This document shows positions 2,623 to 37,954 of a stretch of 64,000 bases of DNA, piece by piece (the first letter of the stretch is position 1; each line of letters starts with the position of its first letter). The stretch lies in the NCBI RefSeq assembly GCF_003044305.1, contig NZ_PZOX01000005.1, forward strand, positions 579,493 to 643,492. Reading direction: 5' to 3'. The notes under the pieces are model-generated. The model saw only the letters and a program-made list of their open reading frames with translations. It ran no database searches and had not been told where the DNA came from. This DNA comes from Vitiosangium sp. GDMCC 1.1324 (GTDB lineage Bacteria; Myxococcota; Myxococcia; Myxococcales; Myxococcaceae). A program made the translations under genes and the position numbers.

Positions 2623-2958
2623 ATGGACCCATTCGTGCGGCGCCTCGTGGAGAGGCTCCATGACCCGGCGCGACCCCTGTCGCGCAACCGGCACTTCCAC
2701 ACGTTCGACACCCCCGAGGGTCGGATGGCGCTGAAGGTGTATCGCCGGCTGAACAGCATCCACAAGGACATCCTCGCCTGCGTGAAGGAGGGCCGGCGCG
2801 CCCGGCTCTTCCGCCACGTCAACGAGGAGGGCGAGCACCGCATCGAGCTGCACTTCGAGCGGATCGCCGGACGCCGTGTCTCCCACCTCAAGGCCGCCGA
2901 GCTGGAGCTGCTCGCCCAGCTCCCGGGCGTGCGCGACGCGCTCGAGGGGGACCTCTAG
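2623..2958 (+). CDS. hypothetical small protein (~111 aa)
   Basis: In-frame ATG (MDPFVRRLVERL...) inside ORF 2257..2958. The upstream part overlaps the TPR gene on the opposite strand, so the shorter start is preferred. No recognised domain. Confidence 0.45.
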   Translation: MDPFVRRLVERLHDPARPLSRNRHFHTFDTPEGRMALKVYRRLNSIHKDILACVKEGRRARLFRHVNEEGEHRIELHFERIAGRRVSHLKAAELELLAQLPGVRDALEGDL

Positions 2959-3097
2959 CCCCCTGCCCTCCAGAAGCCCGGCGCGCACGGGTTGCGCGGG
3001 GTGCCCTCCCAGGGCGCACGGGTTGCGTCGGCTGACACCTCCGCCCCCCGGCACCACCGTTGGAACGAAGGCTGCTAGCGGCGGGACGGGAGGGTTC

Positions 3098-5008
3098 ATG
3101 AACGAACAGGACTGGCAGGCGCGGTACGCGGACAAGGTGACGACGGCGGAGGAGGCCATCCGCCAGATTCCCCGGGGGCGGCGCATCCTCATCGGCTCGG
3201 GGGCAGCCGAGCCCGTGAGCCTCGTCAAGGCCATGGTGGAGAAGGGCGAGCACCTGGCCGACAACGAGGTGGTGCACCTGATGACGCTGGGCCCGGCCCC
3301 CTACGTGGAGCCCGAGTACCAGCACCGCTTCCGGCACATCGCCTTCTTCATCGGCGCCAACACGCGCAAGGCGGTGCAGGAGGGCCGGGCGGACTTCATG
3401 CCGGTGTTCCTCTCGGAGATTCCCGAGCTCATCCGCAGCCAGCGCGTCCGGGTGGACGTGGTCCTCCTCCAGGTGAGCCCGCCGGACGCGCACGGCTACG
3501 TGAGCCTGGGCGTGTCGGTGGACGTGGTGCGCTCGGCGGTGGAGGCGGCCTCGCTGCTCATCGCCGAGGTCAACCCGCGCATGCCGCGCACGCATGGGGA
3601 CTCGTTCGTCCACGTGAGCCGCCTGCACCGACTGGTGCCGGTGGACCAGCCGCTCCTGGAGCGTCCCCACGAGGAGCAGGACGCGGTGTCCCAAGAGATT
3701 GGCACCCACATCGCCCGGCTGATTCCGGATGGGGCCACGCTGCAACTGGGCATTGGCAGGATTCCGGACGCGGTGCTGGCGCAGCTCACGCACCACAAGG
3801 ACTTGGGGCTGCACACGGAGATGATGTCCGACGGGGTGATGGAGCTGGTGGAGGCGGGGGTGATGACGGGGCGCAGGAAGACGCTGCTGCCGGGCAAGCT
3901 GGTGACGTCCTTCATCATGGGCACCCGGAAGCTGTACGAGTGGGTGCACGAGAACCCGGCCATCGAGATGCGGCCGAGCGACTTCACCAACGACCCGGGA
4001 GTGGTGGCGCGCAACGAGCGGATGGTGGCCATCAACGGGGCGCTGGCGGTGGACCTCACCGGGCAGGTGGCGGCGGACACACTGGGCGGGTGCTTCTTCT
4101 CGGGGATTGGCGGACAGGTGGACTTCATCCGGGGCGCGGCGAGGAGCCGGGGCGGCCGGCCCATCATCGCCCTGCCCTCGACGGCGAAGGGCGGCAAGGT
4201 GAGCAGGATTCAGGTGGCGCTGGAGGGGGGCACCGGCGTGGTGACGAGCCGCGGCGACGTGCACTACGTGGTGACGGAGTATGGCGTGGCGGACCTGTGG
4301 GGGAAGAACATCCGCGAGCGCGCCAAGGCGCTCATCCACATCGCGCACCCGGACTTCCGCGCGGAGCTGATGGCGGCGGCCAAGGAGCGGCGCTGGGTGC
4401 TGCCGGACCAGGTAGTGCCCCGCGCGCGCTACCCGTGGACGGAGGAGCGGGTGGAGCGCATCCTCTCCGGGCAGGAGCTGCTCATCCGCCCCACGCGCAT
4501 CACCGACGAGCGGGCGCTCCAGGATCTGCTGTACGGGCTGAGCGACGACAGTACCTACCGGCGCTTCATGTGCTTCAAGAAGCGCCACCCGCACGAGGAG
4601 GTACAGGAGCTCGTCAACCCGGACTTCGAGCAGAACATGGCGCTGGTGGCGTGCGTGCCGGGCACGGACAACGTGGTGGGCGTGGTGCGCTACGACGTGG
4701 TGCTCTCGACGGGGCTGGCGGATGTTGCCTTCGTGGTCCGCGACGACTGGCAGGGCAAGGGGGTGGGCACGGCGCTGATGAAGCGCATCCGTGAAGCCGC
4801 GCAGGCCCGGGGACTGCCGGGCTTCCAGGCCGACGTGCTGGTGACGAACAAGTCCATGCTCGACGTCTTCCACGAGAGCGGCCTCACCGTGAATGCGCGC
4901 CTGGAGAGCGACAGCTACCACCTGGAGTTGCTCTTCCCCACGGGCGACGCCGGGCTCACCGGGCCTACTGCGACACCTGGCAGGACGTCCGCAACTCCTC
5001 CACGGTGA
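3098..5008 (+). CDS. acetyl-CoA hydrolase/transferase-family domain fused to C-terminal GNAT acetyltransferase domain
   Basis: ORF 2876..5008; ATG at 3098 (MNEQDWQARYADKV...). N-terminal ~500 aa resemble the 4-hydroxybutyrate / acetyl-CoA CoA-transferase family. C-terminal ~150 aa carry GNAT motif A (VAFVVRDDWQGKGVGTALM). Confidence 0.85.
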   Translation: MNEQDWQARYADKVTTAEEAIRQIPRGRRILIGSGAAEPVSLVKAMVEKGEHLADNEVVHLMTLGPAPYVEPEYQHRFRHIAFFIGANTRKAVQEGRADFMPVFLSEIPELIRSQRVRVDVVLLQVSPPDAHGYVSLGVSVDVVRSAVEAASLLIAEVNPRMPRTHGDSFVHVSRLHRLVPVDQPLLERPHEEQDAVSQEIGTHIARLIPDGATLQLGIGRIPDAVLAQLTHHKDLGLHTEMMSDGVMELVEAGVMTGRRKTLLPGKLVTSFIMGTRKLYEWVHENPAIEMRPSDFTNDPGVVARNERMVAINGALAVDLTGQVAADTLGGCFFSGIGGQVDFIRGAARSRGGRPIIALPSTAKGGKVSRIQVALEGGTGVVTSRGDVHYVVTEYGVADLWGKNIRERAKALIHIAHPDFRAELMAAAKERRWVLPDQVVPRARYPWTEERVERILSGQELLIRPTRITDERALQDLLYGLSDDSTYRRFMCFKKRHPHEEVQELVNPDFEQNMALVACVPGTDNVVGVVRYDVVLSTGLADVAFVVRDDWQGKGVGTALMKRIREAAQARGLPGFQADVLVTNKSMLDVFHESGLTVNARLESDSYHLELLFPTGDAGLTGPTATPGRTSATPPR

Positions 5009-5394: not shown

Positions 5395-6891
5395 CTATCC
5401 AGCTACGGGCATGGACCGTGGGGCCTGCGGGACGCCAGGCAACAGCGGCGCCGGGTTGAGCGCCAGGATGAGCAAACTGCGCAGCGCTTCCTGGAGATCC
5501 TCCCCCACGCTGGTGGCTCCCGCGGGCGCCCCCTGCAATTCCGGCGGGACCGGGTGGCCCACCATCACCACCGGCATGCGGATGTCCCAGGCCAGGAAGT
5601 GCGCCAGCTTCACCGCCGCTTCCGAGGCATCGAAGAGCAGCGCGCCCAGCGCTCCCGAGCTGAACGGCCGCCACAACGGCCTCGCGGCCTCCGCCGGAGG
5701 CAGCACGCAGAAGTCCAGGTGCAGCAGCTCGCTGAGATCCATCCGCCCCAGCGTCCCAAAGCCACTCTTCACCGCGGGGGGCTCGGCGGCCACGGCCTCG
5801 ATGCCGGGCAGTTGGGACAGCAGCTTCCGCGCCACCGCCGGGCCGCTGCCACAGACGAAGAGCTTCGCGGTGGCCTCGCGCGACGGCCCCCGGCCCCGGA
5901 GGATGCGCCCTCGCAGTGCGTGCAGCTCGGCGGGCCCCAGCAGCGGACCGCTCCCCTCCTCCCGGAGGACCTCGGCCATCCGGGCCACGCCCTTCTGGAG
6001 GAGCGTGTGCAACACGCCCACCACATCCAGGTCCGTGGCGGGCGCCAGGTCCAACACCTCTCCGAGCGCCCTCGGTTGGCGCAGCAGCTCCACTACCTGT
6101 GCCGTCACCGGATGCTGATCCTGCGTCAGGTCCGCGTCCGGCGAGAGCACCAGCCGGGTGTTGCGCGCCGGCAGCCCCGGCAGCAGCCGGTTCAGCTCGT
6201 CCGCCTGGCGCATCGCCTCCAGCAGGGCATCGTCCACGGCGCGCTGGATGCGGGGCTTGCCGCTGGTGGTGCCCGGAGAGAAGGTGAACGAGCCCTCGGT
6301 CCACACCAGCAGCCGGAAGAGGGCCTTCTCGCCTTCCGCGCGGCCCATCTTCGCGTTCACCGGGCGGCCTTCCACCACGGAGATCTCCCCGCGCTCGCTG
6401 CCCCGCTCCAGCGTCAGCTTGCCGCTGCGCTTGTTCATCCCGAGGATCTGCATCAGGTCCGGGATGCTCAGCTGGCTCAACGAGCCTTCGATCTCCTGGA
6501 CATCGGCCTTGAGATCCTTGGCCGCCTCGCCGCGGCGGAAGACGTGCTCGATGCGGGAGAGCACCTCGTCGATGTTGAAGGGCTTGCGCAGGAAGCCGTC
6601 GCGCAGGCCGCGCAGCTTGTCCGCCTCGAACTGGCCGGTGGAGACCACCACCGGAATGTCATCCGTGCGCGGGTTGGTGCGCAGGATGTTGATGAAGGTG
6701 CGCGCGTCCAGCATCCGGCACGCCTCATCGAAGAGGATGAGGTCCGGGTGGCGCAGCACGGCGACTTCCAGGGCGCGCGAGCCATCCGGCGCGTAGTGCA
6801 CCTGGTAGCCCTTGGTGCGCAGGGCGCGCGAGAGCGGGCGAACCGACTCGAGGTCGGGATCGGCGATGAGGATCTTTCGAACCTGGGCCAT
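5395..6891 (-). CDS. response regulator: receiver domain + DUF4388-like domain + C-terminal extension
   Basis: MAQVRKILIADPDLESVRPL...FDEACRMLD...RKPF = CheY-like receiver, followed by a PATAN/DUF4388-like region (SIPDLMQILGMNKRSGKLTL...). This architecture is typical of myxobacteria. Confidence 0.85.
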   Translation of the reverse strand: MAQVRKILIADPDLESVRPLSRALRTKGYQVHYAPDGSRALEVAVLRHPDLILFDEACRMLDARTFINILRTNPRTDDIPVVVSTGQFEADKLRGLRDGFLRKPFNIDEVLSRIEHVFRRGEAAKDLKADVQEIEGSLSQLSIPDLMQILGMNKRSGKLTLERGSERGEISVVEGRPVNAKMGRAEGEKALFRLLVWTEGSFTFSPGTTSGKPRIQRAVDDALLEAMRQADELNRLLPGLPARNTRLVLSPDADLTQDQHPVTAQVVELLRQPRALGEVLDLAPATDLDVVGVLHTLLQKGVARMAEVLREEGSGPLLGPAELHALRGRILRGRGPSREATAKLFVCGSGPAVARKLLSQLPGIEAVAAEPPAVKSGFGTLGRMDLSELLHLDFCVLPPAEAARPLWRPFSSGALGALLFDASEAAVKLAHFLAWDIRMPVVMVGHPVPPELQGAPAGATSVGEDLQEALRSLLILALNPAPLLPGVPQAPRSMPVAG

Positions 6892-6909: not shown

Positions 6910-8760
6910 TCAGTACGGCTGCAGATCGTACTCAGCCTGCAAACGGGTGATGAGCCCATCCACCACGGCGGTGTCCGATGAATGGAAGCCCCAGGTGGCC
7001 CCGAGCCCCCGGCGCTGGATGAGCGCGTAGGCGGCGCTCTCCGAGAGCCAGAGGATGAACTCGTGCCGGTTCATCCGGTCGTCTCCCTCCAGGAAGACGG
7101 GCGTGAGCGCCGGGTGGGACTCCAGGTCCGAGCGCCGCCCCAGCAGGTAGATGCGCGAGGCCATGTCCGGAGGGGCCGACTCCAACCCCATCGCGATGGG
7201 CAGATCCGCGCGGATCTCCGGCCCCCCCACGTACAGCAGCCCGCGCGAGCCCGGATCTCGCATCAACTCGCGGGCGATCTCCGTCTGCAGCTCGTCGAAG
7301 AGGACGTCGGACACCTTGCCCCGGCGCGAGGGCTCGGCGTTCTCCTCTATTGGCAGCTTGGGACTGGAGGCATTGCCGAGCAGCAGGTCCACCTCGTCCC
7401 AGAAGGGCAGCGTGTCCAGCATCAGCTTGCGCTGCAGGGAGGCGCGCCGCTCGTCCATGCGCCGGCGGCAGCGGTGCACCAGCTCGTCGAAGTCCTCGCC
7501 GTCCTTGGGGAAGGTGCTCGCCCCGCCCACCAGCGCCAACGGCAGGCGCGACTCCACCTCCCGCGCCTCCGGCTCCGCGCGCACCGCGTCCAGGGCGCGG
7601 CGCACGAACATCATCGCGCCGAAGAAGTCCGTCTCCGGCAGCAGCAGGTAGAACTCCTGGTCGCTCGCCTTGGCGATGACGTCCGAGTCCCGGACGATGC
7701 GCGAGAACGCCTTGATGATGCCGCGCACCGCGAGCTTCGCGTCCGCCACGCCCAGGCGCATGCGCACCATGGGCAGGTTGTCCACGCTGAACGTCAGCAG
7801 CGAGAACGACCGCCCGTAGCGCCGCGCCTTGTAGATCTCCTTGGAGGCGTAGTCGGTGAAGTAGCTGAGGTTGTAGGCGGCGGTGTCGCGGTCCCGGAGC
7901 CCCAGCCGCTGCAATGCCTGGATCCGGCGGCCGTTCTTGACGCCCACCGCGGCCGAGTCACCCAGGATCTTCGCGTAGCGCACGTGCTCGACGCGGAAGT
8001 CCCCGCCGAGCGGATCCGACAGCTGCGCCAGGCCCATGATCTCCCCGCTGGTGACGAAGGGGACGTAGAGCACCGGCGAGCGCTCGTCGCGGGCAATCCA
8101 CGGCGTGGCCTCGCGCAGACGGTTGCCGAGAGGCCCCTCGGGGCTCATGCGATCGGTGAGGAACTGCTTGTCCAGCAGGCCGCGGTAGGCACGGAGGATG
8201 AGGTGTCCGCGGTCATCGGTGATCCACAGGGCGGCGCTCTGGGCATCGCAGACGGAGGCGAGCTCGGCGGCCACACGCTCCTGGAGCCACTCGAGGTCCG
8301 GCTGGGAGAGGAACTCCAGGCAGCGCTGGTGGAGGTTCTGGTAGCGGGCGAACTCGAAGTTCTCGGTCTGGAGCTGGGTGCGCTCGCGGCGCAGCTGGGC
8401 GCGCTCCATGGCGCGCTCGGTGGCCAGCAGCAGGTCCGTCTCGTCGACGGGCTTGGTGAGGACGACGGCCACCCCCGCGCTCAGGGCCATGGCCGAGCCC
8501 TTCACGTCCGTGCGCTGGGTGATGAGGATGATTTCCTGATCCGGGTCGCGCTCGCGCAGCTTCGCGGTGAGGCCGAAGCCGTCCATCTCGGGCATCACCA
8601 GGTCGGTGATGACCAGGTCGAAGGATTCGCGCCCCACCTCCTCGAGGGCCCGGGCGGCGCTCTCCGCCATGACGACGCGATAGCCCCTCCGGGTGAGGAT
8701 GTCGGAGGCGAGCTGCCGGAAGAAGTTGTCGTCGTCGACGACGAGGATGGGGCCAGCCAC
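6910..8760 (-). CDS. response regulator with GAF and degenerate GGDEF (SDQEF) domains
   Basis: ORF 6910..9546, but the upstream part overlaps dapF. In-frame GTG at 8760 begins VAGPILVVDDDNFFRQL... (receiver). GAF-like middle region. GGDEF-like region has RYGRSFSLLTFSVDNL and SDQEF in place of GGDEF, so it is probably non-catalytic. Confidence 0.75.
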   Translation of the reverse strand: MAGPILVVDDDNFFRQLASDILTRRGYRVVMAESAARALEEVGRESFDLVITDLVMPEMDGFGLTAKLRERDPDQEIILITQRTDVKGSAMALSAGVAVVLTKPVDETDLLLATERAMERAQLRRERTQLQTENFEFARYQNLHQRCLEFLSQPDLEWLQERVAAELASVCDAQSAALWITDDRGHLILRAYRGLLDKQFLTDRMSPEGPLGNRLREATPWIARDERSPVLYVPFVTSGEIMGLAQLSDPLGGDFRVEHVRYAKILGDSAAVGVKNGRRIQALQRLGLRDRDTAAYNLSYFTDYASKEIYKARRYGRSFSLLTFSVDNLPMVRMRLGVADAKLAVRGIIKAFSRIVRDSDVIAKASDQEFYLLLPETDFFGAMMFVRRALDAVRAEPEAREVESRLPLALVGGASTFPKDGEDFDELVHRCRRRMDERRASLQRKLMLDTLPFWDEVDLLLGNASSPKLPIEENAEPSRRGKVSDVLFDELQTEIARELMRDPGSRGLLYVGGPEIRADLPIAMGLESAPPDMASRIYLLGRRSDLESHPALTPVFLEGDDRMNRHEFILWLSESAAYALIQRRGLGATWGFHSSDTAVVDGLITRLQAEYDLQPY

Positions 8761-8798: not shown

Positions 8799-9653
<855 letters not shown>

Positions 9654-9668: not shown

Positions 9669-12600
9669 TCAGTCCTGCTCATCGGGTTTCGGGGTGGACG
9701 CGGGCGCTGGAGCGGATGTGCCCCCCTTGGGGCGGCGAAGCAACTCATTCTTCACCGCGTTCAGCTCAGCGTTGGCTCGAGCATAGATGTCCTGGACCGT
9801 ATCCGCGCCCTTGCGGGCGGACAGGCGCTTCGAGGCGGCCAGCTCAGCGTCCTGCCCTTCCAGGCGGCGCTTCTGCTCCGCCAGTGCCGCGTCGCGCTCG
9901 GACAGTGTGGCCTGGAGGGTGTCGACCTCCGTTTGCAACCGCTCCACCTCCTCGGACATCTCCAGGATGGCCTCGGAGTCCGAGACCGGCTTGCGCGATT
10001 GGAGATGCTCGACCTTCTCTCGCAGTGCGGCCCGCTCGGTCTCCAGGGCCTTGATGCGGGCGGTCAGCGCCTCGGCCGCCTGGGCCTGCTTCGTCTTCTC
10101 CGCGCGCTCGGCCTCGAGGAACTTCACCGCCTCGGCGGAGGCCGCCTCCAACGCCGTCACCCGGCCCTCCAGCCGGATGCGGGCCGCCCGGGCCACCGTG
10201 AGATCCGAGTTGAGCCGCTCGCGCTCGGAGACGAGCGTCCCCTTCTCCGCCTCGAGCCTCGCGAACTGCTCCTGCACCGCCTGCGTGGAGCTGTCCCGCT
10301 CCCGGACCCGCCGCTCCGCCTCTTCCGCCCGAGCCTCCAGCTCGGCCTGCTTCGCCTGCGTGGAAGCCTCGAGCTCCCGGGCGTGCCGCTCGGCCTCTTC
10401 CGCCTGGGCCTCCAGCTCCACCAGCTTCGCCTGAAGAGAGGCCTCGCGCTCCCGGGCCTGTTGCTCGGCCTCCTGCGCCTGGGTCTCCCGCTCCGACAGC
10501 TTCGCCTGAAGGGAGGCCTCGCGCTCCTGGGCTTGCTGCTCGGCCTCTTCCGCCTGGGCCTCCAGCTCCGACAGTTTCGTCTGAAGGGAGGCCTCGCGCT
10601 CCCGGGCGTGCCGCTCGGCCTCTTCCGCCTGGGCCTCCAGCCCGGCCTGGCTCGTCTTCGAGGCCTCCAGCTCGGCTCGGACTTCCGCGAGCCGGGACTC
10701 GAGCTCGCCCGCCGAACGCTCCGCCGTGGAGACGCGCTCCCGCTCCGCCTGGTGCTCCTCCCGCGCCTGGATCAGCTCGGCGCGAAGGGTCTCCAGGTCC
10801 TCGTGAGCAGTCTCCAGGCCTGTGCGCGCCTTCTCGAGCTCGGCCCGGGCGGACGCGAGTGCCTCACGCTCCTCCTGGAGGGCGGACTCGAGCGAGGGCG
10901 CCTTGCCCGCGATGCGCCGCGCCGATTCGAGCTGCACGGTGAGCAGCTCCATCTGCTCGTGCTCGGAGGCGAGCCGGGCCTGGGTCTCGGACAGCTCCTT
11001 CTGGAGGTGAGCGAGGTGCTGGTCCCTGTCCCGCAGCGCTCCGTGGGCCTGCTGGAGCGCCATGGAGGCCTGCTGCGCCTGAAAGCGAGCGGCATCCAAC
11101 TGCGCCACCTGGGCCCGCAGCGCCTCCAGCTCCTGGTCCTTCTTCCCGAGGTCCTCCCGGAGCCCCTCCAACTCGACCCGGGCCTCCACCGCGTCGCGCT
11201 TGCGAGCCTCGCGCTCGGCGGCACTGGACTCCTCGCGTGCCCGGGCCTCCGCGAGCCGGGCCTCGGTCTGCTCCACCTGCTCCCGCAGGGCCGTCTCGCG
11301 GGCCTGGGCATTGGCGGTCACCTCGGAGGACGTGCCGCGCTCCCACTCCAGGTTCGCCCGGAGCTCCTCGACGAGTCGCTTCTGCTCCGCCAGGGACTCG
11401 CCCAGCGCTGTCCCCTCTCGGCGGGCCGACTCCAGCTCCGTGCGCAGGGCCGAGGACTCCTCACGGGCCGCCTCCAGCGCCGAGAGCCGGGTCCGCTCGC
11501 GCTCGTCCGCGCCCGCCTGGGCGGACTCCAGATCGGCGCGCGCCTCGGCCAGGGACTGCTCCAGGGCCACACGTCCGGAGTGCTCGGACTCCAGCTCCCG
11601 CTGCGTCTCGGTGAGGGTGGACTCCGCCTCGGCCAGCGACGCCGCCAGCGCCGAGCGCTCCTGCCGCGTCTCCTCCAGCGCCGAGCGCAGCTCCTCGAGC
11701 CCGCGTTCCGCCTCGGCGCGCGCCTGCTGCTCGGCGTCGAGCCCGGCACGCACCTGGGACAGCAAGGCATCCGCGCTCTGGCTCTCCGCCGCGAACGAGG
11801 CCTCGGTCTCGGCCCGCTGCCGCCGCTCCGTATCGAGCTCTGCCCGGACGAGCGCCAAAGACTCCTCGGAACGCGTCCTGCTCTCGCGCTCCGCCTCCAG
11901 CTCATCTCGAACAGCCGCGAGCGACTCCTCGGAACGCGTCCTGCTCTCGCGCTCCGCCTCCAGCTCATCTCGAACAGCCGCGAGCGACTCCTCGGAACGC
12001 GTCCTACCCTCGCGCTCCGCTTCCAGCTCGTCTCGAACAGCCGCGAGCGACTCCTCGGAACGCGTCCTGCCCTCGCGCTCCGCCTCCAGCTCGTCTCGAA
12101 CAGCCGCGAGCGACTCCTCTGCCTCGGTGCGCTGCCGCCGCTCGGTATCGAGCTCGGTGCGCACCTGGACGAAGGACTCCTCCGAGGCCCCATGCGCCTG
12201 CCGTGCGGACTCCAGCGCGGACTCGAGCTGGGTGATCCGCTGCCGCTCGGCCTCGAGCGCCGCCCGGGCCCGCGTGAGGAGCTCGTCCGCCAGGGTCCGC
12301 TGCTGACGCTCCTCCTCGAGCTCGGAGCGGGTGCGAGCCCCCTCCTCGTTCGACTCGATGCGCAGCTGCCGCTCGGCCTCGAGCCCGGCACGGGTCCGCG
12401 AGAGCGAGTCCCGGGCCTCCTCCAGGAGCTGCCGCTCCGCCTCGAGCTCCGCCTGAGCCCGCGACACGGCCTCCTCCAGCCGCGCCCTGCCCTGCCGTTC
12501 GAGTTCGAGCTCGGCCAGGGCCTGCTCGCGCTCCTCGTCGGCCTTCGCCCGGGCCTGCTGCTCGGCCGCGATGGAGCCCTGGGTCGCCTTGAGTGCCGCA

Positions 12601-14633
12601 TCGAGCCGGGAGATGGAGTCCACGTCCGAGGCACGAACCCGCTCCAACTCCGCGAGCATCGCCTCGGCCTCCACCACGCGCCTGCGCAGGGCACCGCGCT
12701 CGTCGGCCCACTGCTGTTGCCGCGCCTCCAGCTCGGCGAGGGCCCGCGCGGCCTCCTCACGCGCACCGGCCTCCACGGCCACCTGGTTCTCGAGCCCCTC
12801 GGCGCGGCGCTCCTGGGCTTCCCGCGCGGCCAGCTCCCGAGCGGCCTCGGCCTCGGCCTTCTCCGCCCTCGCCCGCTCCACCGCGACCGCCTGCGCGAGC
12901 CGTTCCTCGGCGCGCCGACGTTCCTCGTCGATGGACTCCTCCAGCTCCACGGCGGCGCGGACCCGCTCCTCGTCCAGCGAGGCCAGACGCCCCTGGAGCT
13001 CGTGCACGGTCTGCTCGAGCTGGGCCGCGGCCGCCCGGACATTCGCCTCGGCGCGCGAGCGGGCTTCCACCTCGGCCGAGAGCTGCTCCACGCTGGCGCG
13101 CGCCGCGGTGAGCTCCGTGTCCAGTCCACGCCACTCGGCCTCGCGAGCGGTGAGCCGCAGCTCCGCGTCCCGCCGGCCCGCCTCCGCGGCCGACACACGG
13201 CGGGCGCTGTCCTCCAGCTCGCGAGACATGCGCGCCAGGTCCGCGTCCTGCAGGCGCAGGGACTTCTCCGCCGCCTCGCGCGCCGCGTCGGCCCGGGCCA
13301 CGTCCGACTTGAGCAGCTCCACCGCGGCGAGCGCCGTCGAGTACTGCTCGGCGATGCGCAGCTCCCGCTCGCGGGCCGCCTCCACCTGCCGCCGCAGATC
13401 GTCGGACTGCTCGCGGGCGCGCTCCGCCGAGAGCCTGTCCTTCTCGCGCTCGACGCGCAGGCCGGCCAGCTCGTCCTGCAGCTCGCGCAGCTGGGTGTAT
13501 GTCTGGGTGAGACGCTCGCGCGACTCCTCGAGGGTGGTGTTCAGCTCCTCGCGGCGGGCGCGCTCCAGCCGAACCGCCTCCTGGGCGCCCAGGGCCTGGA
13601 CATCGGCCTCCTTCCGGGCGCGCTCGGCAGCCTCCAGCTCCAGCCGCTGCTGGGTGAGGCGCCGGTCCGCGTCCGTCACGCGCTCCAGGGCCACCTGCAA
13701 TTCCAGCTCGGTGCGGCGCAGCCGAGAGGACAGCTCATCGCGCTCGCGGGTGGACTCGGGGGTGCCGCGCGCCTGCTCCAGTTGCGCGGTGAGCCGGGCC
13801 ACGTCGTCGCGGGCGATCTCCAGCGAGGGCTTGAGCTGGGCCAGCTCGGTCTCGCGGTCGGTCAGCTCCGCGCGCAGCCGGGTGAGGGACTCCTTGAGAC
13901 GGCCGGTGCGCTCCTCCCAGCCCTTGGCGCGCTGGACCACCTCGTCCAGCTTGCCGCGGGTGAAGGCGAGCGGCTCGGGAGGAAGCTGGACCCAGGTGGG
14001 GTCCACGATGCGAGCCGGCTCCAGGCTGGCCACCACCACGAAGTAGGCCGCCTCGCTGCCGCGGATGAGGGTGCCGTCCACCTGGAGCCCATCGCCCTTC
14101 TCGAAGGCGAGCTGGTAGCCCAGCACCGGGGACTGGGTGGCCACCTCCACGTGGGGGAAGTGCGGCGAGAGCGCGTCGAGCAACTGCCCATACGTGGGCG
14201 GCACGCCCTCCTCCACATCCATGAGCTGCCAGAGGGCCAGGCCCGCCGCGTTGCGCAGGCCGCCGATGAGGTAGCCCTGACGGCTCACGAGCCGGGCCAG
14301 CTCGGCGAACAGCGCGGGGGCGCGCACATAGGGGGCCAGGTCGGCCACCAGGACCAGATCGAAGCTGCCGGGCTCGAGGTCGTCGTAGACGTTGGCGCGG
14401 TAGCGCAGCGTGGCGCTGCCGTGGGCCTTCTGGGCCGACTCGACCGCCTTCAGGTCCGCGTCACAGGCCACGACGGTGCGGGCGCCGCGCTCCAGGAGGA
14501 AGCGCGCGCTCTCGCCGCCGGTGGTGGCGACCGCGTCCACCTCCAGCACACGACGGCGTGCGAAGAGGCTCTCCGCGAAGATGTACCGGGGCAACAGCTC
14601 GCTGGTCCCCAGGCGGCGGAATGTGGGATGCAT
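9669..14633 (-). CDS. giant coiled-coil protein (~1655 aa) with N-terminal SAM-methyltransferase-like domain
   Basis: ORF 9669..14729. ATG at 14633 (MHPTFRRLGTSELL...) is preferred over the TTG at 14729. N-terminal ~200 aa has a Rossmann/MTase-like fold (VLEVDAVATTGGESARFLLERGARTVVACDADL). The rest is a continuous E/R/A/L-rich heptad coiled coil with in-frame tandem repeats. Confidence 0.8.
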   Translation of the reverse strand: MHPTFRRLGTSELLPRYIFAESLFARRRVLEVDAVATTGGESARFLLERGARTVVACDADLKAVESAQKAHGSATLRYRANVYDDLEPGSFDLVLVADLAPYVRAPALFAELARLVSRQGYLIGGLRNAAGLALWQLMDVEEGVPPTYGQLLDALSPHFPHVEVATQSPVLGYQLAFEKGDGLQVDGTLIRGSEAAYFVVVASLEPARIVDPTWVQLPPEPLAFTRGKLDEVVQRAKGWEERTGRLKESLTRLRAELTDRETELAQLKPSLEIARDDVARLTAQLEQARGTPESTRERDELSSRLRRTELELQVALERVTDADRRLTQQRLELEAAERARKEADVQALGAQEAVRLERARREELNTTLEESRERLTQTYTQLRELQDELAGLRVEREKDRLSAERAREQSDDLRRQVEAARERELRIAEQYSTALAAVELLKSDVARADAAREAAEKSLRLQDADLARMSRELEDSARRVSAAEAGRRDAELRLTAREAEWRGLDTELTAARASVEQLSAEVEARSRAEANVRAAAAQLEQTVHELQGRLASLDEERVRAAVELEESIDEERRRAEERLAQAVAVERARAEKAEAEAARELAAREAQERRAEGLENQVAVEAGAREEAARALAELEARQQQWADERGALRRRVVEAEAMLAELERVRASDVDSISRLDAALKATQGSIAAEQQARAKADEEREQALAELELERQGRARLEEAVSRAQAELEAERQLLEEARDSLSRTRAGLEAERQLRIESNEEGARTRSELEEERQQRTLADELLTRARAALEAERQRITQLESALESARQAHGASEESFVQVRTELDTERRQRTEAEESLAAVRDELEAEREGRTRSEESLAAVRDELEAEREGRTRSEESLAAVRDELEAERESRTRSEESLAAVRDELEAERESRTRSEESLALVRAELDTERRQRAETEASFAAESQSADALLSQVRAGLDAEQQARAEAERGLEELRSALEETRQERSALAASLAEAESTLTETQRELESEHSGRVALEQSLAEARADLESAQAGADERERTRLSALEAAREESSALRTELESARREGTALGESLAEQKRLVEELRANLEWERGTSSEVTANAQARETALREQVEQTEARLAEARAREESSAAEREARKRDAVEARVELEGLREDLGKKDQELEALRAQVAQLDAARFQAQQASMALQQAHGALRDRDQHLAHLQKELSETQARLASEHEQMELLTVQLESARRIAGKAPSLESALQEEREALASARAELEKARTGLETAHEDLETLRAELIQAREEHQAERERVSTAERSAGELESRLAEVRAELEASKTSQAGLEAQAEEAERHAREREASLQTKLSELEAQAEEAEQQAQEREASLQAKLSERETQAQEAEQQAREREASLQAKLVELEAQAEEAERHARELEASTQAKQAELEARAEEAERRVRERDSSTQAVQEQFARLEAEKGTLVSERERLNSDLTVARAARIRLEGRVTALEAASAEAVKFLEAERAEKTKQAQAAEALTARIKALETERAALREKVEHLQSRKPVSDSEAILEMSEEVERLQTEVDTLQATLSERDAALAEQKRRLEGQDAELAASKRLSARKGADTVQDIYARANAELNAVKNELLRRPKGGTSAPAPASTPKPDEQD
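10360..10640. repeat. ~66-bp in-frame tandem repeats (4 copies) inside the coiled-coil gene
   Basis: Repeating cgcctgaag(g/a)gaggcctcgcgctcc(c/t)gggc...ctcggcctc(t/c)t(c/g)cgcctgggcctccagctc units encode EAQAEEAE(R/Q)HAREREASLQAKL x4. Confidence 0.8.
11860..12120. repeat. ~63-bp in-frame tandem repeats (4-5 copies) inside the coiled-coil gene
   Basis: The unit ctcctcggaacgcgtcctgctctcgcgctccgcctccagctcatctcgaacagccgcgagcgact repeats, encoding EESLAAVRDELEAEREGRTRS x5 with minor variants. Confidence 0.85.
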
Positions 14634-14734
14634 GAAGTCGGACGGCCGAGTATAGCCCCGGGAACGGTTGTCCCAAGGAAAGCGCCGAGGCCGGGAAATC
14701 GCCTCGCCGCCCGGACGTCTGGGGAGCAAGCGAC

Positions 14735-15613
14735 ATGAATCCCATGATGAACCCGCAACAGAACCGGCCCAGCTTCGGACGCCGGGCCACGAGCGCCTTC
14801 ACGAGGCTCTTCGTCACCCTTCTCATCCTCAGCCTGGGCGGGCTGGTGGCCTTCCTCCTATCGGAACGGAACGCCCGGACCTTCACCCTGGCCCTGGAGA
14901 ACGGGCAACTGGTGGTGATGAAGGGGCGGATGCTGCCCATGGGGGCGGTGCCCTACCAGCCCGGGGACGGGCGGCTGGCGGACGCCTATGCCCCCCTCTC
15001 CGTCGAGGGCCGGGACGTCTCATTCCTGATGGAGCGGCCCTTCCGGGAGCGGGAGGAGCTGGACCGGGCGCTCTTTCCGGTGCTGGAGGGGCTCGCCCAG
15101 CCGAAGGTGCAGTCGGACGACCCGGAGCTGCTGGCGAAGGGCCTCTACTACCTGCGGCGCGCGGAGCTCCTCTCCGGACTGACGGAGGAGCAGCGACGCA
15201 CGCTGGAGACGATGAAGGCGGATGTGTCCTTCTTCCAGGCGAGGCAGCAGTTGGAGGAGGCGCGGCGGAACGTGACGGAGGCGCTGACGCAGCTGAAGCT
15301 GGCGGCGGAGAGCCGGAACCGGAACACGCAGCGGGCCAACCAGATGCTCAGCACGGTGGGCCCGGCGGCGCAGGCGCTGGAGAAGGCGCTGCGAGCCGTG
15401 GATGCCAGCCTGCTCGAGCCCGGCGGTGCCTCGACGCCGGCCGAGACGCCCATTCCCCCGCCGGCCGCACCACAGCAGACGCCCGGAGCCACGACGCCCG
15501 GGGCCACGGCGCCGGCGGCACCGGAGCAGAAACCGGGGGTGCGAACCACGGACAGTGAAACGCAGCAGCACCCCGCCGGGACGGAGCAACCCGGGACGGG
15601 CACGGCGCGCTGA
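14735..15613 (+). CDS. hypothetical membrane-anchored protein with Pro/Thr/Ala-rich C-terminus
   Basis: 292-aa ORF divergent from the coiled-coil gene. N-terminal TM helix ([21 protein letters not shown]); low-complexity [22 protein letters not shown] tail. Confidence 0.6.
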
Positions 15614-33372: not shown

Positions 33373-33606
33373 ACCTCGCCTTCCAGTGCCGTAAACGGTC
33401 ACCCCTCGACGAAAAACGTCACTGCACTCCTGGCACGCACAAGCCGTGCTCCGTGATTGCAAGGGCTTGCCTGACTGCCTGCTCTGGCACGACCCCTGCT
33501 GAGCGGCGCTCGGCGCACGAGATCCTTCCAGGTCGTTAGCAGCGGTCGGTGACCGTCAGGGCCTCGTGTTGCCTGAAGCGCCAAGTGGGGATCGAGAGAG
33601 GATGAC

Positions 33607-35829
33607 ATGCAACGAAGAGGAAACCATTGGAGCTCACTACTGGCGCCGTTGCTCGGCATCATGTTGTGGACGGGTTCCGCGGCGGGCGCGGACGCCAGGC
33701 ACGCGGAATGCCCACCGAAGCCGCTGGTGCCGGCCTCACGAGACACGATCTCGGCCAGCATGCTGAATGCGCTCGCGGTGCACCCGGATGGCACCGTCTG
33801 GGCCTGGGGCAACAACCAGGAGGGCCAACTCGGGGATGGAACCACCGAGACCCGGTACGCGCCGCAGCGGGTGAAGAATCTCTCGGACGTGGTGGCCGTG
33901 GCGAACGGCGAATTCCACAGCCTGGCACTGCGCCGGGACGGCACCGTCTGGGCCTGGGGCAACAACTCCTTCGGCCAGCTCGGCACCGGTCTGCCGGGAA
34001 GAAACCTCACTCCGGTCCAGGTTCCGGACCTGACGGATGTGGTCGCCATCGAGGCAAGTGCCTACTTCTCGCTGGCACTGCGCCGGGACGGCACCGTCTG
34101 GTCCTGGGGCGACAATGGCTACGGCCAGCTCGGTGATGGGACGAAAGACATGCGGTCCTCGCCCGTGCGGGTGCAGGGACTGGAGAACGTGGCGGACATC
34201 GCCGCCGGCTACCGCCACAGTCTGGCAGTGGACCAGGATGGCACCGTCTGGTCCTGGGGCCACAATGGCTCCGGCCAGCTCGGTGACGGGACGACCGCGC
34301 AGCGCAACACGCCCGCCCCGGTGCCGGGCCTGACGGACGTGGTCACCCTCGAGGCGGGAAACTTCCACTCGCTGGCACTGCGCCAGGACGGCACCGTCTG
34401 GGCCTGGGGCCACAATGGCTACGGCCAGCTCGGTGATGGGACGACCACGCAGCGCAACACGCCCGCCCCGGTGCCGGGCCTGACGAACGTGGTCACCCTC
34501 GAGGCGGGGGACTATCACTCGCTGGCACTGCGCCAGGACAGCACCGCGTGGTCCTGGGGCTTCAATGTCCTCGGCCAGCTCGGTGATGGGACGACCACTC
34601 ATCGCAACACGCCCGTACAGGTCTCGAAGCTCGAGGACGCGGTGGCCATCGGCGCGGGCAGCAACCAATCGCTGGCCATGCGCGCCAATGGCACCCTGTT
34701 GGGCTGGGGAGACAACTCCATGGGCCAGCTCGGGACGGGCTCCAACTTCCGAGACACCCCCGTGCGGCTCAAGGCCGTGAAGCATGGAGTGACCGCCTCG
34801 CTCACCCTCCATGCCCTCGTGCTGCGCGAGGATGGCACCGTGTCGTCCTGGGGCTTCAACCTCGATGGCCAGCTCGGGGATGGGACGAAGTCCACGCGCG
34901 CCGAACCGGGACAGGTGCTCGGTATCGCGGACGCGGTCGCCGTGGAGACCGCGAGGTCCAACTCGTTCGTGCTGGGCTCGGACGGCACCGTGTGGGCCTG
35001 GGGCAGCAACTCCTCCGGCCAGCTCGGGGATGGAACGCGCACCTCCCGGATCACCCCCCTGCCCGTGCAGGGATTGACGAACGTCACCGCCCTGACGAGC
35101 AATGGGGATCATGTCCTGGCGTTGCGCCAGGATGGCACGGTGTGGAGCTGGGGCGGCAACACCGCTGGCCAGCTCGGAAACGGAACGACGAGCCCCAGTC
35201 TCACGCCCGCCCAGATCCAGGGCCTGTCGGACATCGTGGCCGTCGCGTCCGGCTCCTTCCGCTCGATGGCGCTGCGCCGCGACGGCACCGTGTGGGCCTG
35301 GGGCGCCAACAACTTCGGCCAGAACGGAGACACAACGACGAGCCGCCATCTCACGCCCGTCCAGGTCCAGGGTCTGTCGGACGTCGTGGCCATCGCGACC
35401 GACTACGGCCACTCGCTGGCGCTGCACGCCGATGGCACCGCGTCGGCCTGGGGCTACAACAACTATGGTCAGCTCGGGGACACGTTGGAGACCAGCCGAA
35501 GCATCCCGGCACGAGTACCGGGCCTGACGAACGTGTCGAGCATCGCCGTGGGGAGCCTGCACAGCCTGGCACTGCGCGAGGATGGGACCGTCTGGGCCTG
35601 GGGCTACAACGGGTATGGCCAGCTCGGTGATGGAACCCTGGCGCCCCGGCACATGCCAGCACCCGTCCCGGGGCTGAAGCACATGAGGGCCATCGCAGCG
35701 GCTGGCGACAACTCCCTGGCCATCCGCAAGAATGGCGAGCTGTTCAGCTGGGGGAGCAACTGGTTCCTCACGATTGGAGATGGAGTGGGCTTCGCCCACA
35801 CCGTCCCGGCGCCTGTGCTGATGCCATAG
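33607..35829 (+). CDS. secreted RCC1-repeat (beta-propeller) protein
   Basis: Signal peptide, then about 14 tandem ~50-aa RCC1 repeats (DGTVWAWGNNxxGQLGDGTT...). About 150-bp periodicity is visible in the DNA (ctggcactgcgcc[gag]ggacggcaccgtctgg recurring). Confidence 0.85.
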   Translation: MQRRGNHWSSLLAPLLGIMLWTGSAAGADARHAECPPKPLVPASRDTISASMLNALAVHPDGTVWAWGNNQEGQLGDGTTETRYAPQRVKNLSDVVAVANGEFHSLALRRDGTVWAWGNNSFGQLGTGLPGRNLTPVQVPDLTDVVAIEASAYFSLALRRDGTVWSWGDNGYGQLGDGTKDMRSSPVRVQGLENVADIAAGYRHSLAVDQDGTVWSWGHNGSGQLGDGTTAQRNTPAPVPGLTDVVTLEAGNFHSLALRQDGTVWAWGHNGYGQLGDGTTTQRNTPAPVPGLTNVVTLEAGDYHSLALRQDSTAWSWGFNVLGQLGDGTTTHRNTPVQVSKLEDAVAIGAGSNQSLAMRANGTLLGWGDNSMGQLGTGSNFRDTPVRLKAVKHGVTASLTLHALVLREDGTVSSWGFNLDGQLGDGTKSTRAEPGQVLGIADAVAVETARSNSFVLGSDGTVWAWGSNSSGQLGDGTRTSRITPLPVQGLTNVTALTSNGDHVLALRQDGTVWSWGGNTAGQLGNGTTSPSLTPAQIQGLSDIVAVASGSFRSMALRRDGTVWAWGANNFGQNGDTTTSRHLTPVQVQGLSDVVAIATDYGHSLALHADGTASAWGYNNYGQLGDTLETSRSIPARVPGLTNVSSIAVGSLHSLALREDGTVWAWGYNGYGQLGDGTLAPRHMPAPVPGLKHMRAIAAAGDNSLAIRKNGELFSWGSNWFLTIGDGVGFAHTVPAPVLMP

Positions 35830-35843
35830 CGGCGGAGCGCCAG

Positions 35844-35883
35844 GGCCACACCGGAGGGGCAGGCAGCCTCCCCCGGTGTGGCC
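35844..35883 (+). terminator. candidate terminator hairpin after RCC1 gene
   Basis: Perfect 11-bp inverted repeat ggccacaccgg ... ccggtgtggcc with an 18-nt loop. Confidence 0.4.
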
Positions 35884-35929
35884 CGCCGCCCCCATTGACG
35901 GCAAGGGGCATCCGGCCGAGAGTCGGCCC

Positions 35930-37954
35930 GTGATTCTCCCCCTGGTGGCCGCCCTCGTGGTGAGCCAGCCGATCGACCCCCAGCAGCCCGGCGCGGGCGT
36001 CCCCAGTCCGGACGTCGTCGGGCCATCCATCTCCGAACCCACCCCTCCCCCGGCCCCGCCCGAGCCCGAGGAGACCGACCGGCGCAAGCAGACGGTCGTC
36101 ACCTCCTCGCGCGCCGAGCGCAAGCTGGAGGACGCGGTGGTGGCCACCGAGGTCATCACCCGCAAGCAGATCGACGCCGTCGGCGCCAGGGATCTGGGTC
36201 AGCTCCTCCAGCAACACCCGGGTGTGGAGCTCGTCCACAACTTCCGGGGCACCGGCCTGCGTCTGCAAGGTTTGGATCCGGAGTACGTGCTCGTGCTCGT
36301 CGACGGCGAGCGCGTGAGCGGCCGCGTGGGCACCACGCTCGACCTGGGACGCTTCAACCTGCGCGACGTGGAGCGGGTGGAGATCGTCAAGGGACCGGCG
36401 GCGGCGCTCTACGGTGCGGACGCCATCGGCGGCGTGGTGAACCTCATCACCCGCCGCGTGCAGCGCCCGCTGGAGCTCGACGCCCGGGGCTCGTTCGGCA
36501 CGTTGTTGGAAGGTGACTTCCGCGCGAACGCCGGCACGAAGCAGGGTCCCTTCGAGGTGCGCGTGGGCGGCGGCTACCGCACCCGCAACCCCTACGACTG
36601 GGTGCCCGCGGACGCGGCGACGAGCGGCGCGGGCCTCCAACGGGTCGATGGGGATGTGGCCCTCGCCTATGCGCCGGACGAGCGCTCCCGTCTGTGGCTG
36701 CGCAGCCAGTACAACCTGCGCAACGAGAACGCCGTCGATCTCAACCCCTCGGGCGCCGTGCTCGACCGGCGGCAGCGGCAGGAGCAGTTCGACGTCTCGC
36801 TCGGCGGAGGAAAGCAGCTCGCCGGCGGCACCTCGCTGCTCGTCCGGGGACACTTCGGCCTGTTCCGCGAGCAGCTCCTGCAGGACCAGCGCGGCTCGCG
36901 GGCGCTCGACGACTACTCGCAGAACTTCACCCGGCTCTACGAGGGCGTCGCCCAGGCAGATCACCACCTGGGCGACCACACGCTCACCGGTGGCATCGAA
37001 GTGCTCGGCGAGCGGCTCACGTCCATGCGGCTCGAGCAGAGCCCCGTGAGCCGCATCCGGGGCGGTGCCTTCCTCCAGGACGAGTGGGATGTGGCGCTGT
37101 CCTCGGACGGCTCGGGGCCGAAGCTCAAGGTGGCGCCGGGCTTCCGCTTCGACCTGGACTCTCAGTTCGGCGGAGCACCTTCACCTCGGCTCGCCATCAA
37201 GCTGGACACCAGCCCCGCCCTCACGGTGCGCGCCTCGGTGGGACTCGGGTTCCGCCCGCCGTCCTTCCAGGAGCTGTACCTGCGCTTCTCCAACCCGGGC
37301 ATCGGCTACATCGTCGCGGGCAACCGCGACCTCCAACCCGAGCACTCGGCGGCGGTGAACGTCGGCGTGGACTGGCGCCCGCCCATCGACGGGTGGCTCC
37401 TCTCCGCGAGCGGCTTCCACACCCGGCTCAACAACCTCATCAACGTCACCGCCACCGGCGAGCCCAACCCGGATGATCCGGTGACCTACAACTACGAGAA
37501 CGTGGCCCGGGCGTACACGCAGGGCTTCGAGCTCAACGGGCGCTTCCGCCTGCCCGTGCGCTCGACGTACCTGGACCTGGGGTACATGTTCCTCGACGCG
37601 AAGGACCTCACGCGCGACCGCCCGCTGGAGGGCCGCTCGCGGCATCGCGTCAACGCGCAGCTCTCCACGCGCTACCGACCGCTCGACCTCGAGGCCACCG
37701 TGCGCGGCTCGTGGGTGAGCGGCCGGCCGTACTACCTCGGCTCGGATGGCGGCATGGCCAACGTGCTCGGCTTCGGCGAGGAGCAGCGGGTGTGGTCGCC
37801 CGCGTATTTCGATCTCGAGGCCAAGGTCGCCTACCGGCTGCGCAGCGGGTTCGAGGTCTTCGTCAACGGCTACAACCTGCTCAACGCGGGAGACCAGCAG
37901 TTCAACCCGCGGCCGCCGCGAGGCGTGCTGGGCGGCGTCCAGTGGGAGTACTGA
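35930..37954 (+). CDS. TonB-dependent outer-membrane receptor (start uncertain; ORF opens at 35876)
   Basis: Plug domain (...VVTSSRAERKLEDAVVATEVITRKQIDAVGARDLGQLLQQHPGVEL...; IVKGPAAALYGADAIGGVVNLITR). Beta-barrel ends ...GVQWEY (C-terminal aromatic). The GTG at 35876 lies inside the upstream hairpin, so the GTG at 35930 is preferred. Confidence 0.8.
   Translation: MILPLVAALVVSQPIDPQQPGAGVPSPDVVGPSISEPTPPPAPPEPEETDRRKQTVVTSSRAERKLEDAVVATEVITRKQIDAVGARDLGQLLQQHPGVELVHNFRGTGLRLQGLDPEYVLVLVDGERVSGRVGTTLDLGRFNLRDVERVEIVKGPAAALYGADAIGGVVNLITRRVQRPLELDARGSFGTLLEGDFRANAGTKQGPFEVRVGGGYRTRNPYDWVPADAATSGAGLQRVDGDVALAYAPDERSRLWLRSQYNLRNENAVDLNPSGAVLDRRQRQEQFDVSLGGGKQLAGGTSLLVRGHFGLFREQLLQDQRGSRALDDYSQNFTRLYEGVAQADHHLGDHTLTGGIEVLGERLTSMRLEQSPVSRIRGGAFLQDEWDVALSSDGSGPKLKVAPGFRFDLDSQFGGAPSPRLAIKLDTSPALTVRASVGLGFRPPSFQELYLRFSNPGIGYIVAGNRDLQPEHSAAVNVGVDWRPPIDGWLLSASGFHTRLNNLINVTATGEPNPDDPVTYNYENVARAYTQGFELNGRFRLPVRSTYLDLGYMFLDAKDLTRDRPLEGRSRHRVNAQLSTRYRPLDLEATVRGSWVSGRPYYLGSDGGMANVLGFGEEQRVWSPAYFDLEAKVAYRLRSGFEVFVNGYNLLNAGDQQFNPRPPRGVLGGVQWEY

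Follow-up and report, generated by a model that had tools for sequence, protein, structure and literature searches.

A conserved myxobacterial protein with a methyltransferase-fold head and a coiled-coil rod of variable length

The stretch of DNA analysed here (the window) comprises 64,000 nucleotides of the genome of Vitiosangium sp. GDMCC 1.1324, a member of the Myxococcaceae (assembly GCF_003044305.1, contig NZ_PZOX01000005.1, positions 579,493 to 643,492 of the forward strand). In keeping with an origin from this organism or a nearly identical strain, the product of the neighbouring gene is 100 % identical to a protein recorded for Vitiosangium sp. GDMCC 1.1324 (there placed in the Archangiaceae). 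On its minus strand lies a gene for a protein of 1654 amino acids (aa), in which a globular N-terminal head with the fold of the class I S-adenosylmethionine (SAM)-dependent methyltransferases (MTases) is followed directly by a coiled coil of some 1400 residues. The gene is real and conserved in myxobacteria: orthologues are present across the Myxococcaceae, where it is a core gene, and it is located in a housekeeping region with prs, the L25 gene rplY, pth, the S6 gene rpsF, the L9 gene rplI, dnaB and clpB. In public records these proteins carry the names 'methyltransferase domain-containing protein', 'HCR' and 'plectin'. When the exact sequences of the window protein and of two orthologues from Myxococcus were looked up, no record was returned, and full-text literature searches found no paper on, and no characterised member of, the head-plus-coiled-coil family.

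The gene and its methyltransferase-fold head

A previous interpretation made from the letters of the DNA (the sequence-only reading) had proposed a single gene of about 5 kb at 9669-14633. An open reading frame (ORF) was found at exactly these coordinates on the minus strand, with an ATG at 14633, a stop codon at 9669-9671 and 1654 codons plus the stop. Its codon-position GC (.80/.49/.90) is like that of the other genes in the window, and by the same measure an overlapping plus-strand ORF of 1948 aa is an antisense shadow frame. Sixty-odd orthologues share the start M-x-x-T-F-R-R-L-G, so the ATG at 14633 is the true start; a TTG further upstream, at 14729, was ruled out since the orthologues begin at the ATG. 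A sigma-70-like promoter match, TTGGGA-16-TATACT, ends 16 nt before the ATG and is unique within 9.8 kb, where shuffled sequence yields 0.1. Confidence in the anatomy of the protein is high, and its features are as follows.

9669..14633, minus strand: coding sequence of the head-plus-coiled-coil protein (ORF and translation, codon-position GC, conserved orthologous start)
14649..14676, minus strand: sigma-70-like promoter match (consensus match only)
13959..14633, minus strand: N-terminal globular head, aa 1-225, class I SAM-dependent MTase fold (Pfam, AlphaFold2, Foldseek, family alignment)
14505..14549, minus strand: non-canonical motif I, VLEVDAVATTGGESA, aa 29-43 (profile alignment to PDB 2avn, family alignment)
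13284..13958, minus strand: conserved proximal rod, aa 226-450 (identity profile, indel map)
10134..12536, minus strand: hypervariable spacer, aa ~700-1500, with nearly all length differences to relatives (indel map and identity profile)
11742..12560, minus strand: 21-aa (63-bp) repeat register of ~13 units, aa 692-964 (register print-out; repeat families D2 and D3 at 63-nt spacing)
11868..12119, minus strand: four near-identical 63-bp core units, EESLAAVRDELEAERE[G/S]RTRS, aa 839-922 (Tandem Repeats Finder (TRF), unit alignment)
10254..10628, minus strand: five 75-bp (25-aa) units, AEEAE(R/Q)(H/Q)AREREASLQAKL.ELEAQ, aa 1336-1460 (TRF, unit alignment, register; repeat families D1, D6 and D7 at 75-nt spacing)
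9672..9971, minus strand: conserved C-terminal module, last 100 aa, with a PKPDEQD tail (C-terminal alignment, identity profile)
9732-9797, minus strand: C-terminal motif VQDIYARANAELNAVKNELLRR, aa 1613-1634, within the C-terminal module

The C-terminal limit of the head is marked by an invariant junction motif, WVQLPPEPL (aa 214-222). The Pfam family Methyltransf_11 (PF08241) matches aa 36-123 with 33.9 bits against a cutoff of 21.2. An AlphaFold2 model of the head, based on 33 family sequences, has predicted local distance difference test (pLDDT) values of 86-97 across residues 20-130, and a Foldseek comparison of this model with the PDB returned more than 800 chains at E <= 0.001. Among the 50 best listed chains, nearly all are SAM-dependent methyltransferases and the remainder are the related spermidine synthases. 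The top matches, ToxA (5je6), Hvo_0019 (6f5z) and CypM (7wzg), have E ~2e-9, a probability of 1.00 and a template modelling score of ~0.5, at sequence identities of 11-18 %. At the level of fold, the head thus belongs to the class I MTases, given a Pfam score above cutoff and the Foldseek matches. The N-terminal MTase-like head of the sequence-only reading is therefore upheld; that reading had named fold prediction as the check, with a lack of MTase-fold similarity as the outcome that would count against it, and the fold obtained with AlphaFold2 and Foldseek is that of an MTase.

In class I MTases, the glycine-rich loop of motif I, which follows strand beta-1, contacts SAM, whilst an acidic residue at the end of beta-2 binds the ribose hydroxyls. 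With ToxA, TM1389 (2avn) and Hvo_0019 the window protein shares the Rossmann-like fold, the beta-2 aspartate, an acidic pair after beta-3 and an aspartate after beta-4. It differs from them in an altered motif I, in the 1400-aa coiled coil fused to it, and in LPRYxFxE and VQLP motifs of its own. The pattern expected of motif I after beta-1, E/D-x-G-x-G-x-G, is absent from the window protein. In a profile alignment to 2avn, VLEvgAVAstgGeSA of the head faces VLDLGG---GTG, an insertion of three residues, which in the AlphaFold2 model forms a short helix in the position of the SAM loop. By profile and family alignment the window protein's motif I, VLEVDAVATTGG, retains one of the three GxGxG glycines; in VLEVD-AVA-TTGG only G40 aligns to a motif-I glycine. 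The Pfam alignment of the window head begins, correspondingly, at position 4 of the Methyltransf_11 profile, and that of canonical members at position 1. The acidic residue of beta-2 is present: D58, within VVACDAD at the end of the strand, does not vary among the 33 aligned sequences and lies opposite VD of 2avn.

In an exhaustive HMMER search, 502 cluster representatives scored at E <= 0.001, of which 149 reached E <= 1e-10, with the head invariably N-terminal and protein lengths of ~270 to 2066 aa. A word-indexed search with the head gave only truncated proteins of <=440 aa, and the full range of lengths is taken from genome loci and the exhaustive search. The sequence-only reading had called the MTase-like head unusual; this needs qualifying, as the fusion of head and rod is no oddity of the window gene and defines a conserved family of at least 149 cluster representatives at the stricter threshold. 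Distant members of the family carry VLEIGCGDG, and their Methyltransf_11 matches begin at profile position 1 with 40-59 bits, whereas the matches of insertion-type members, the window protein among them, begin at positions 3-7 with 28-34 bits. One canonical-motif member, P0148, also matches PrmA with 23.8 bits, above the cutoff of 22, and four members (P0115, P0132, P0154 and P0157) are without the beta-2 acidic residue in the family alignment. A homologue search with a canonical-motif head retrieved, outside this subfamily, only generic MTases, among them UbiE-like enzymes at 30-40 % identity. On these sequences, the family is descended from an ordinary class I MTase, with the cofactor loop rebuilt in the window's clade.

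The window protein has all the hallmarks of this clade: a 225-aa head with LPRYxFxE, VLE[VI][GD]AVA[ST]TxGxSA, GGLRN and WVQLPPEPL, and a coiled coil that starts directly after it. Orthologue lengths and gene order were compared in a set of 80 genomic loci, across which identity in the head is 67-96 %.

The rod and its variation in length

Residues 226-1625 form a rod composed of 19.7 % E, 18.8 % A, 14.4 % R and 11.9 % L, with 4 prolines per 1400 aa. In the best local register, the fraction of L, I, V, M and F at heptad positions a and d is 0.417 against 0.226 +/- 0.011 in shuffles (z ~18), and the enrichment spans the whole rod, every 100-residue bin lying at 0.31-0.48. This local test was used since register shifts dilute the signal of a global Fourier test of 3.5-residue periodicity, which is weak. 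Composition, proline content and heptad pattern agree with the ~1400 aa of uninterrupted E/R/A-rich coiled coil described in the sequence-only reading. The rod is presumably dimeric and parallel, and would be ~208 nm long (1400 residues at 0.1485 nm) if it were a continuous two-stranded coiled coil. A phmmer search of the 1400-aa rod against all PDB sequences gave no match at E <= 1e-3.

Conservation is highest towards the two ends of the protein. Compared with the orthologues of Myxococcus and Corallococcus, the head has 79-84 % identity and the stretch after it, as far as about aa 400, 69-81 %; most 100-aa bins between aa 500 and 1600 drop to 31-47 %. For the proximal rod (aa 226-450) the identity to these orthologues amounts to 70-81 %, against 35-45 % for the distal rod. 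Among the Archangium orthologues the values are at least 80-97 % as far as about aa 500 and 69-91 % from there to aa 700. The indel-bearing stretch of aa 700-1500 has 36-85 % (for the most part 41-81 %), and the closing bin of the profile, which covers the last 54 residues, 72-91 %. The motif VQDIYARANAELNAVKNELLRR near the C-terminus recurs in Archangium, Cystobacter, Pyxidicoccus and short members of the family. M. xanthus and Corallococcus are without it and share another short tail, KKxxERE, and the C-terminus of distant members is a related 'ERDxxIxxL' segment.

Two arrays of in-frame tandem repeats lie in the spacer, and an independent repeat search reproduces their 63- and 75-nt spacings. 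TRF places the first at 11860-12119, with 4.1 copies of 63 bp at 96 %. Its core is four near-identical units, two of which agree at every nucleotide while the rest deviate by 1-3 nt; the two units flanking the core are ~65 % identical to it and closer to each other, and a decayed 21-residue register (...ELEAERQ...) encloses the whole. The 63-bp array had been described earlier as five units, and is confirmed here with a core of four. The second array had been given as four units of 66 bp; this proved incorrect, the period being 75 bp (25 aa) with 4.6-5 copies at 10254-10641 (TRF: 10297-10641, 4.6 copies, 85 %). The hydrophobic pattern of the 25-aa units has a 25/7 periodicity. Twenty-five residues with seven core positions are a non-heptad period that preserves the register, and 21 aa are three heptads.

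Complete orthologues in the 80 loci range from 1009 to 2555 aa. Those of Archangium have 1358-1623 aa and those of Myxococcus and Corallococcus 1871-2293 aa, compared with 1654 in the window. Complete short orthologues of 278-350 aa, consisting of the head and ~50-120 residues of helix, are found at the same locus in more distant lineages. Aligned to the window protein, orthologues from Archangium and Cystobacter are free of indels of >=5 aa up to aa 730. Between aa 730 and 1460 the indels measure 21, 42 and 63 aa in the zone of 21-residue repeats, and 25, 50, 75 and 100 aa in that of 25-residue repeats. Close relatives differ in the same way: pairs at 90-95 % identity are distinguished by blocks of 21, 42 and 84 aa, the window protein differs from that of A. 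minus (85 % identity) by +63, +39 and +50 aa, and two genomes labelled Corallococcus exercitus encode 2066 and 2243 aa. Every orthologue has tandem arrays of its own, the 63-bp arrays running from 2 to 11.4 copies and other periods being 54, 75, 78, 108, 126 and 189 bp.

The number of repeats thus varies among relatives, with lengths of 278-2555 aa and indels of whole 21- and 25-aa units between close relatives, which answers the comparison of copy number suggested with the sequence-only reading; the invariance across strains that would have counted against it is not seen. That reading held the rod length likely to vary by slippage or recombination. Variation between species and between genomes of one named species is observed; as to the mechanism, the pattern of this variation suggests slippage or unequal recombination as the cause of the gain and loss of units.

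At five loci (L016, L060, L065, L080 and L033) the ORF stops after 309-946 aa, with dapF 3-7 kb beyond; several of these are long-read assemblies. Such short ORFs are likely to be frameshift errors or pseudogenes in the repeat-rich rod and not true short forms.

The neighbourhood

The gene is flanked by a divergent gene upstream and by three genes downstream on its own strand.

14735..15613, plus strand: divergent partner gene, 292 aa, with a transmembrane anchor, a beta-hairpin, a helical bundle and a disordered P-rich tail (AlphaFold2 model, synteny)
8799..9653, minus strand: dapF, diaminopimelate (DAP) epimerase (Pfam DAP_epimerase, E 4e-52; conserved position)
6910..8760, minus strand: response regulator with receiver, GAF and degenerate GGDEF domains (Pfam; GTG start; conserved position)
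5395..6891, minus strand: response regulator with DUF4388 (PATAN) (Pfam DUF4388, 80.8 bits, and Response_reg; conserved position)

Of the neighbours, the partner gene is the most faithful: at nearly all 80 loci it lies next to the coiled-coil gene in divergent orientation. It is also found at three distant loci (L081-L083) with 39-46 % identity, two of which, L081 and L083, have different downstream genes. The window shows the context typical of its clade, with the membrane-anchored partner upstream and dapF downstream. Neither Pfam nor NCBIfam has a family for the partner protein, and its AlphaFold2 model, of acceptable quality (pLDDT 73.9), gave nothing with E < 0.8 in a Foldseek search of the PDB. 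It is called 'IF-2 protein' in NCBI and UniRef records, a label which is judged spurious and which probably stems from the P/A/T-rich disordered tail. More than 15 independent short-read assemblies of Myxococcus, Corallococcus and Pyxidicoccus break in the 3' part of this gene, which encodes the tail, 250-820 nt upstream of the head-coiled-coil gene (L022, L025, L027, L030, L031, L033, L036, L040, L041 and L043-L048). This suggests hard-to-assemble sequence, either repetitive or extremely GC-rich, in the tail region.

Downstream, dapF begins 15 nt past the stop of the coiled-coil gene, and the receiver-DUF4388 gene starts 18 nt past the receiver-GAF-GGDEF gene. No terminator-like site was found between the coiled-coil gene, dapF and the regulators. 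As dapF and both response regulators are also present in most of the 80 loci in conserved order, the four genes probably form an operon. A degenerate GGDEF A-site combined with a retained I-site is the signature of a receptor of cyclic di-GMP (c-di-GMP) and not of a cyclase. In the first regulator the A-site, read from the translation, is SDQEF and the I-site is RDSD, an intact RxxD; judged by its sequence, this protein resembles such a receptor rather than a cyclase. The ~180 residues that follow its GGDEF domain are without family assignment. The PATAN regulator has an unassigned C-terminal half of ~260 aa, and its position is conserved across the Myxococcaceae; the PATAN proteins MXAN_3211 and MXAN_4965 (PMC11580455) could not be matched to the locus.

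The canonical-motif subfamily, known from metagenome loci (L084-L095), consists of proteins of 750-1137 aa and has a conserved neighbourhood of its own. A secreted, Cys-containing coiled-coil protein is encoded divergently upstream and an M20 peptidase immediately downstream, with LpxC and tetratricopeptide repeat (TPR) genes near. The upstream gene is not homologous to the divergent partner (hhalign probability 0.3). A link to the DAP pathway through the M20 peptidase was considered and is retained only as a lead, for the peptidase is of the ArgE/DapE superfamily but matches the PRK07906 subfamily and no DapE equivalog. The recurrence of an envelope or DAP-related theme here and beside the dapF of the window's clade may be coincidence.

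Elsewhere in the window, the gene at 2876-5008 (plus strand) fuses N- and C-terminal acetyl-CoA hydrolase/transferase domains to a C-terminal GNAT acetyltransferase. That at 33577-35829 (plus strand) encodes 11 RCC1 repeats, a beta-propeller (WD40_RLD, 709 bits), and overlaps the start of a TonB-dependent receptor gene at 35822-37954 (plus strand) by 8 nt. An 830-aa protein encoded at 46891-49383 (minus strand) carries one SPFH/Band 7 domain, located in the latter half of the chain, and is unusually long for this family. Four ORFs with gene-like codon GC, at 44102-46366 (minus strand), 53537-55228, 38598-39899 and 52297-53481 (all plus strand), encode 754, 563, 433 and 394 aa with no Pfam match at E <= 1e-4.

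Possible functions

The explanation favoured here, to which we give an even chance, is that the protein is a cytoplasmic tether or scaffold with conserved ends, an evolvable spacer and a probably non-catalytic MTase-fold head, with the divergent membrane protein as its working partner and with dapF and the two regulators expressed alongside it. A scaffold function is proposed with modest confidence, and a 'cytoskeletal or scaffold' role is suggested by analogy; we infer the tether function and the partnership with the neighbours from the arrangement of the protein and of the locus. Four modules would make up such a protein: the MTase-fold head (aa 1-225), the conserved proximal coiled coil (to about aa 450), a spacer of free length and the short C-terminal module. 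The head would be held at a set distance from the binding target of the C-terminal module, probably acting jointly with the membrane-anchored partner, and would be co-expressed with dapF, the c-di-GMP-receptor-like GGDEF protein and the PATAN-type regulator.

The spacer, under this proposal, would evolve via the gain or loss of whole in-frame units that keep the register of the coiled coil, and changes in its length would be tolerated because only the two ends carry specific functions. Multiples of 7 account for 54 of the 150 indels, where one in seven would be expected, and 4 mod 7 is the next commonest class, although the counts come from related sequences and the events are not independent.

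The closest architectural analogues are FrzS and AglZ of M. xanthus, in which a small N-terminal signalling-type domain precedes a long coiled coil in a cytoplasmic protein. According to PMC11580455, FrzS has a pseudo-receiver head without the residues for phosphorylation, and for polar targeting the coiled coil of the protein is sufficient. A pseudo-receiver on a coiled coil parallels a degenerate enzyme head on a rod. The window protein differs, however, in having a head of MTase fold, with no Response_reg match and thus no receiver, and in a rod three to five times longer and highly variable in length; there is no sequence homology beyond coiled-coil composition, and it belongs to neither of those families, the likeness being one of architecture.

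Catalysis by the head is doubtful, because motif I has been rebuilt in the window's clade while distant members keep GCGDG. Since motif I is degenerate in the clade, 'MTase-like' is best taken as a label of fold, with activity only putative. On these residues, the head would more probably serve for binding or sensing than for catalysis, and the chances that it is non-catalytic appear about even.

Several observations weigh against the tether with a non-catalytic head. The rebuilt motif-I loop is itself nearly invariant across the Myxococcaceae, as is F91; D58, the DD pair after beta-3 (D84/D85) and D98 are kept, and the N-terminal LPRYxFxE motif is common to the clade and to members with canonical GxGxG. 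SAM binding, and activity, may therefore persist in the head. Orthologues whose rod is only ~50 aa long argue that rod length is inessential to the core function. By the positive-inside rule, the soluble domain of the partner may lie in the periplasm, and contact would then be confined to ~24 residues on the cytoplasmic side. Furthermore, no homologue of the divergent partner, of dapF or of either response regulator was found within 8 kb in the canonical-motif subfamily, so that any partnership with these neighbours would be specific to the clade.

The main rival is a tethered active methyltransferase, in which the head is a working SAM-dependent enzyme and the rod merely oligomerises it or positions it near a localised substrate, be it protein, lipid or small molecule. 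We regard this as possible though on balance improbable. The Methyltransf_11 score above cutoff, the conservation of D58, D84/D85 and D98 at SAM-binding positions of class I MTases and the strong constraint on the whole 225-aa head, LPRY motif included, would all be expected of an enzyme. So would the canonical GCGDG and strong scores of distant members, PrmA in P0148 among them, and the existence of almost rodless orthologues, which makes the head the indispensable part. Yet the window's clade has lost two of the three motif-I glycines and carries a short helix, formed by the three-residue insertion, at the SAM loop; P0115, P0132, P0154 and P0157 are without the beta-2 acidic residue as well. 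No candidate substrate has emerged, and an enzyme-only model has no need of the conservation seen in the proximal rod and the C-terminus.

An intermediate-filament-like cytoskeletal polymer, in the manner of crescentin, FilP or Scy, with the head capping or regulating assembly, is compatible with either the tether or the active enzyme; we consider it unlikely. Crescentin, the Streptomyces proteins FilP and Scy and the Helicobacter Ccrp proteins are long cytoplasmic rods with expected structural roles and no enzyme-fold head, and Scy and FilP carry non-heptad periodicities. The long uninterrupted heptad-patterned rod of the window protein, and the non-heptad periods of its orthologues (units of 25, 18, 11 and 15 aa), are in keeping with such a class. 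Weak matches to the crescentin rod occur within the family (PF19220, recorded for P0037 and, with 23 bits, for P0154), but the cutoff of this profile, Rod_CreS, is 100, and the window protein has no Rod_CreS match in Pfam at E <= 1. It differs from crescentin-type proteins in its enzyme-fold head also. The rod matches no solved structure at E <= 1e-3, and a range from ~50 to ~2300 aa is hard to fit to a defined filament lattice.

Two further possibilities are very improbable. Membership of the SMC-like chromosome-organising proteins, suggested by matches to NCBIfam SMC_prok_B (E 2.8e-24) and SMC_prok_A, was rejected, for these matches, at 85 and 75 bits, fall short of the cutoffs of 567 and 729 (TIGR02168 and TIGR02169) and cover coiled-coil arms only, there being no ABC ATPase head, hinge or Walker motifs and no SMC_N or hinge match in Pfam. 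Streptococcal M proteins are secreted, wall-anchored and immune-selected, and their in-frame coiled-coil repeats vary in copy number from strain to strain and with it in fibre length; in-frame tandem repeats of variable copy number within a coiled coil recall such a surface-exposed protein, with repeats for antigenic or phase variation, but the window protein has no signal peptide, hydrophobic segment or sorting signal at its N-terminus, starts with a folded enzyme domain of cytoplasmic type and is encoded by a core gene of a housekeeping region.

Returning to the tether, a bolder version may be sketched, albeit as a long shot. The family might be a hitherto undescribed cell-biological module of the Myxococcota, its (pseudo)methyltransferase head sensing SAM, or a metabolite related to it, from the end of a spacer tuned to each species by the gain and loss of repeats. 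Acting with the partner and both regulators, it would tie envelope growth or cell polarity to metabolic or second-messenger state, at a set distance from the membrane.

Long coiled-coil scaffolds are known in bacteria; what is new here, and of moderate interest, is the type of head and an unusually free rod length. In practical terms, the gene and its neighbour break short-read assemblies. A conserved core gene without assigned function stands beside two regulators whose types have, in other settings, been connected with c-di-GMP signalling and with motility driven by pili. As canonical and rebuilt SAM loops coexist in one family, the passage from enzyme to pseudoenzyme can be studied cleanly within it, and a natural series of rods from ~50 to ~2300 residues with conserved ends is a ready-made test of whether such a rod serves as spacer or as ruler. 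In myxobacteria, the coiled-coil organisers of motility, polarity and division bear degenerate signalling domains as heads, to which the protein would add a third type of head, an enzyme fold.

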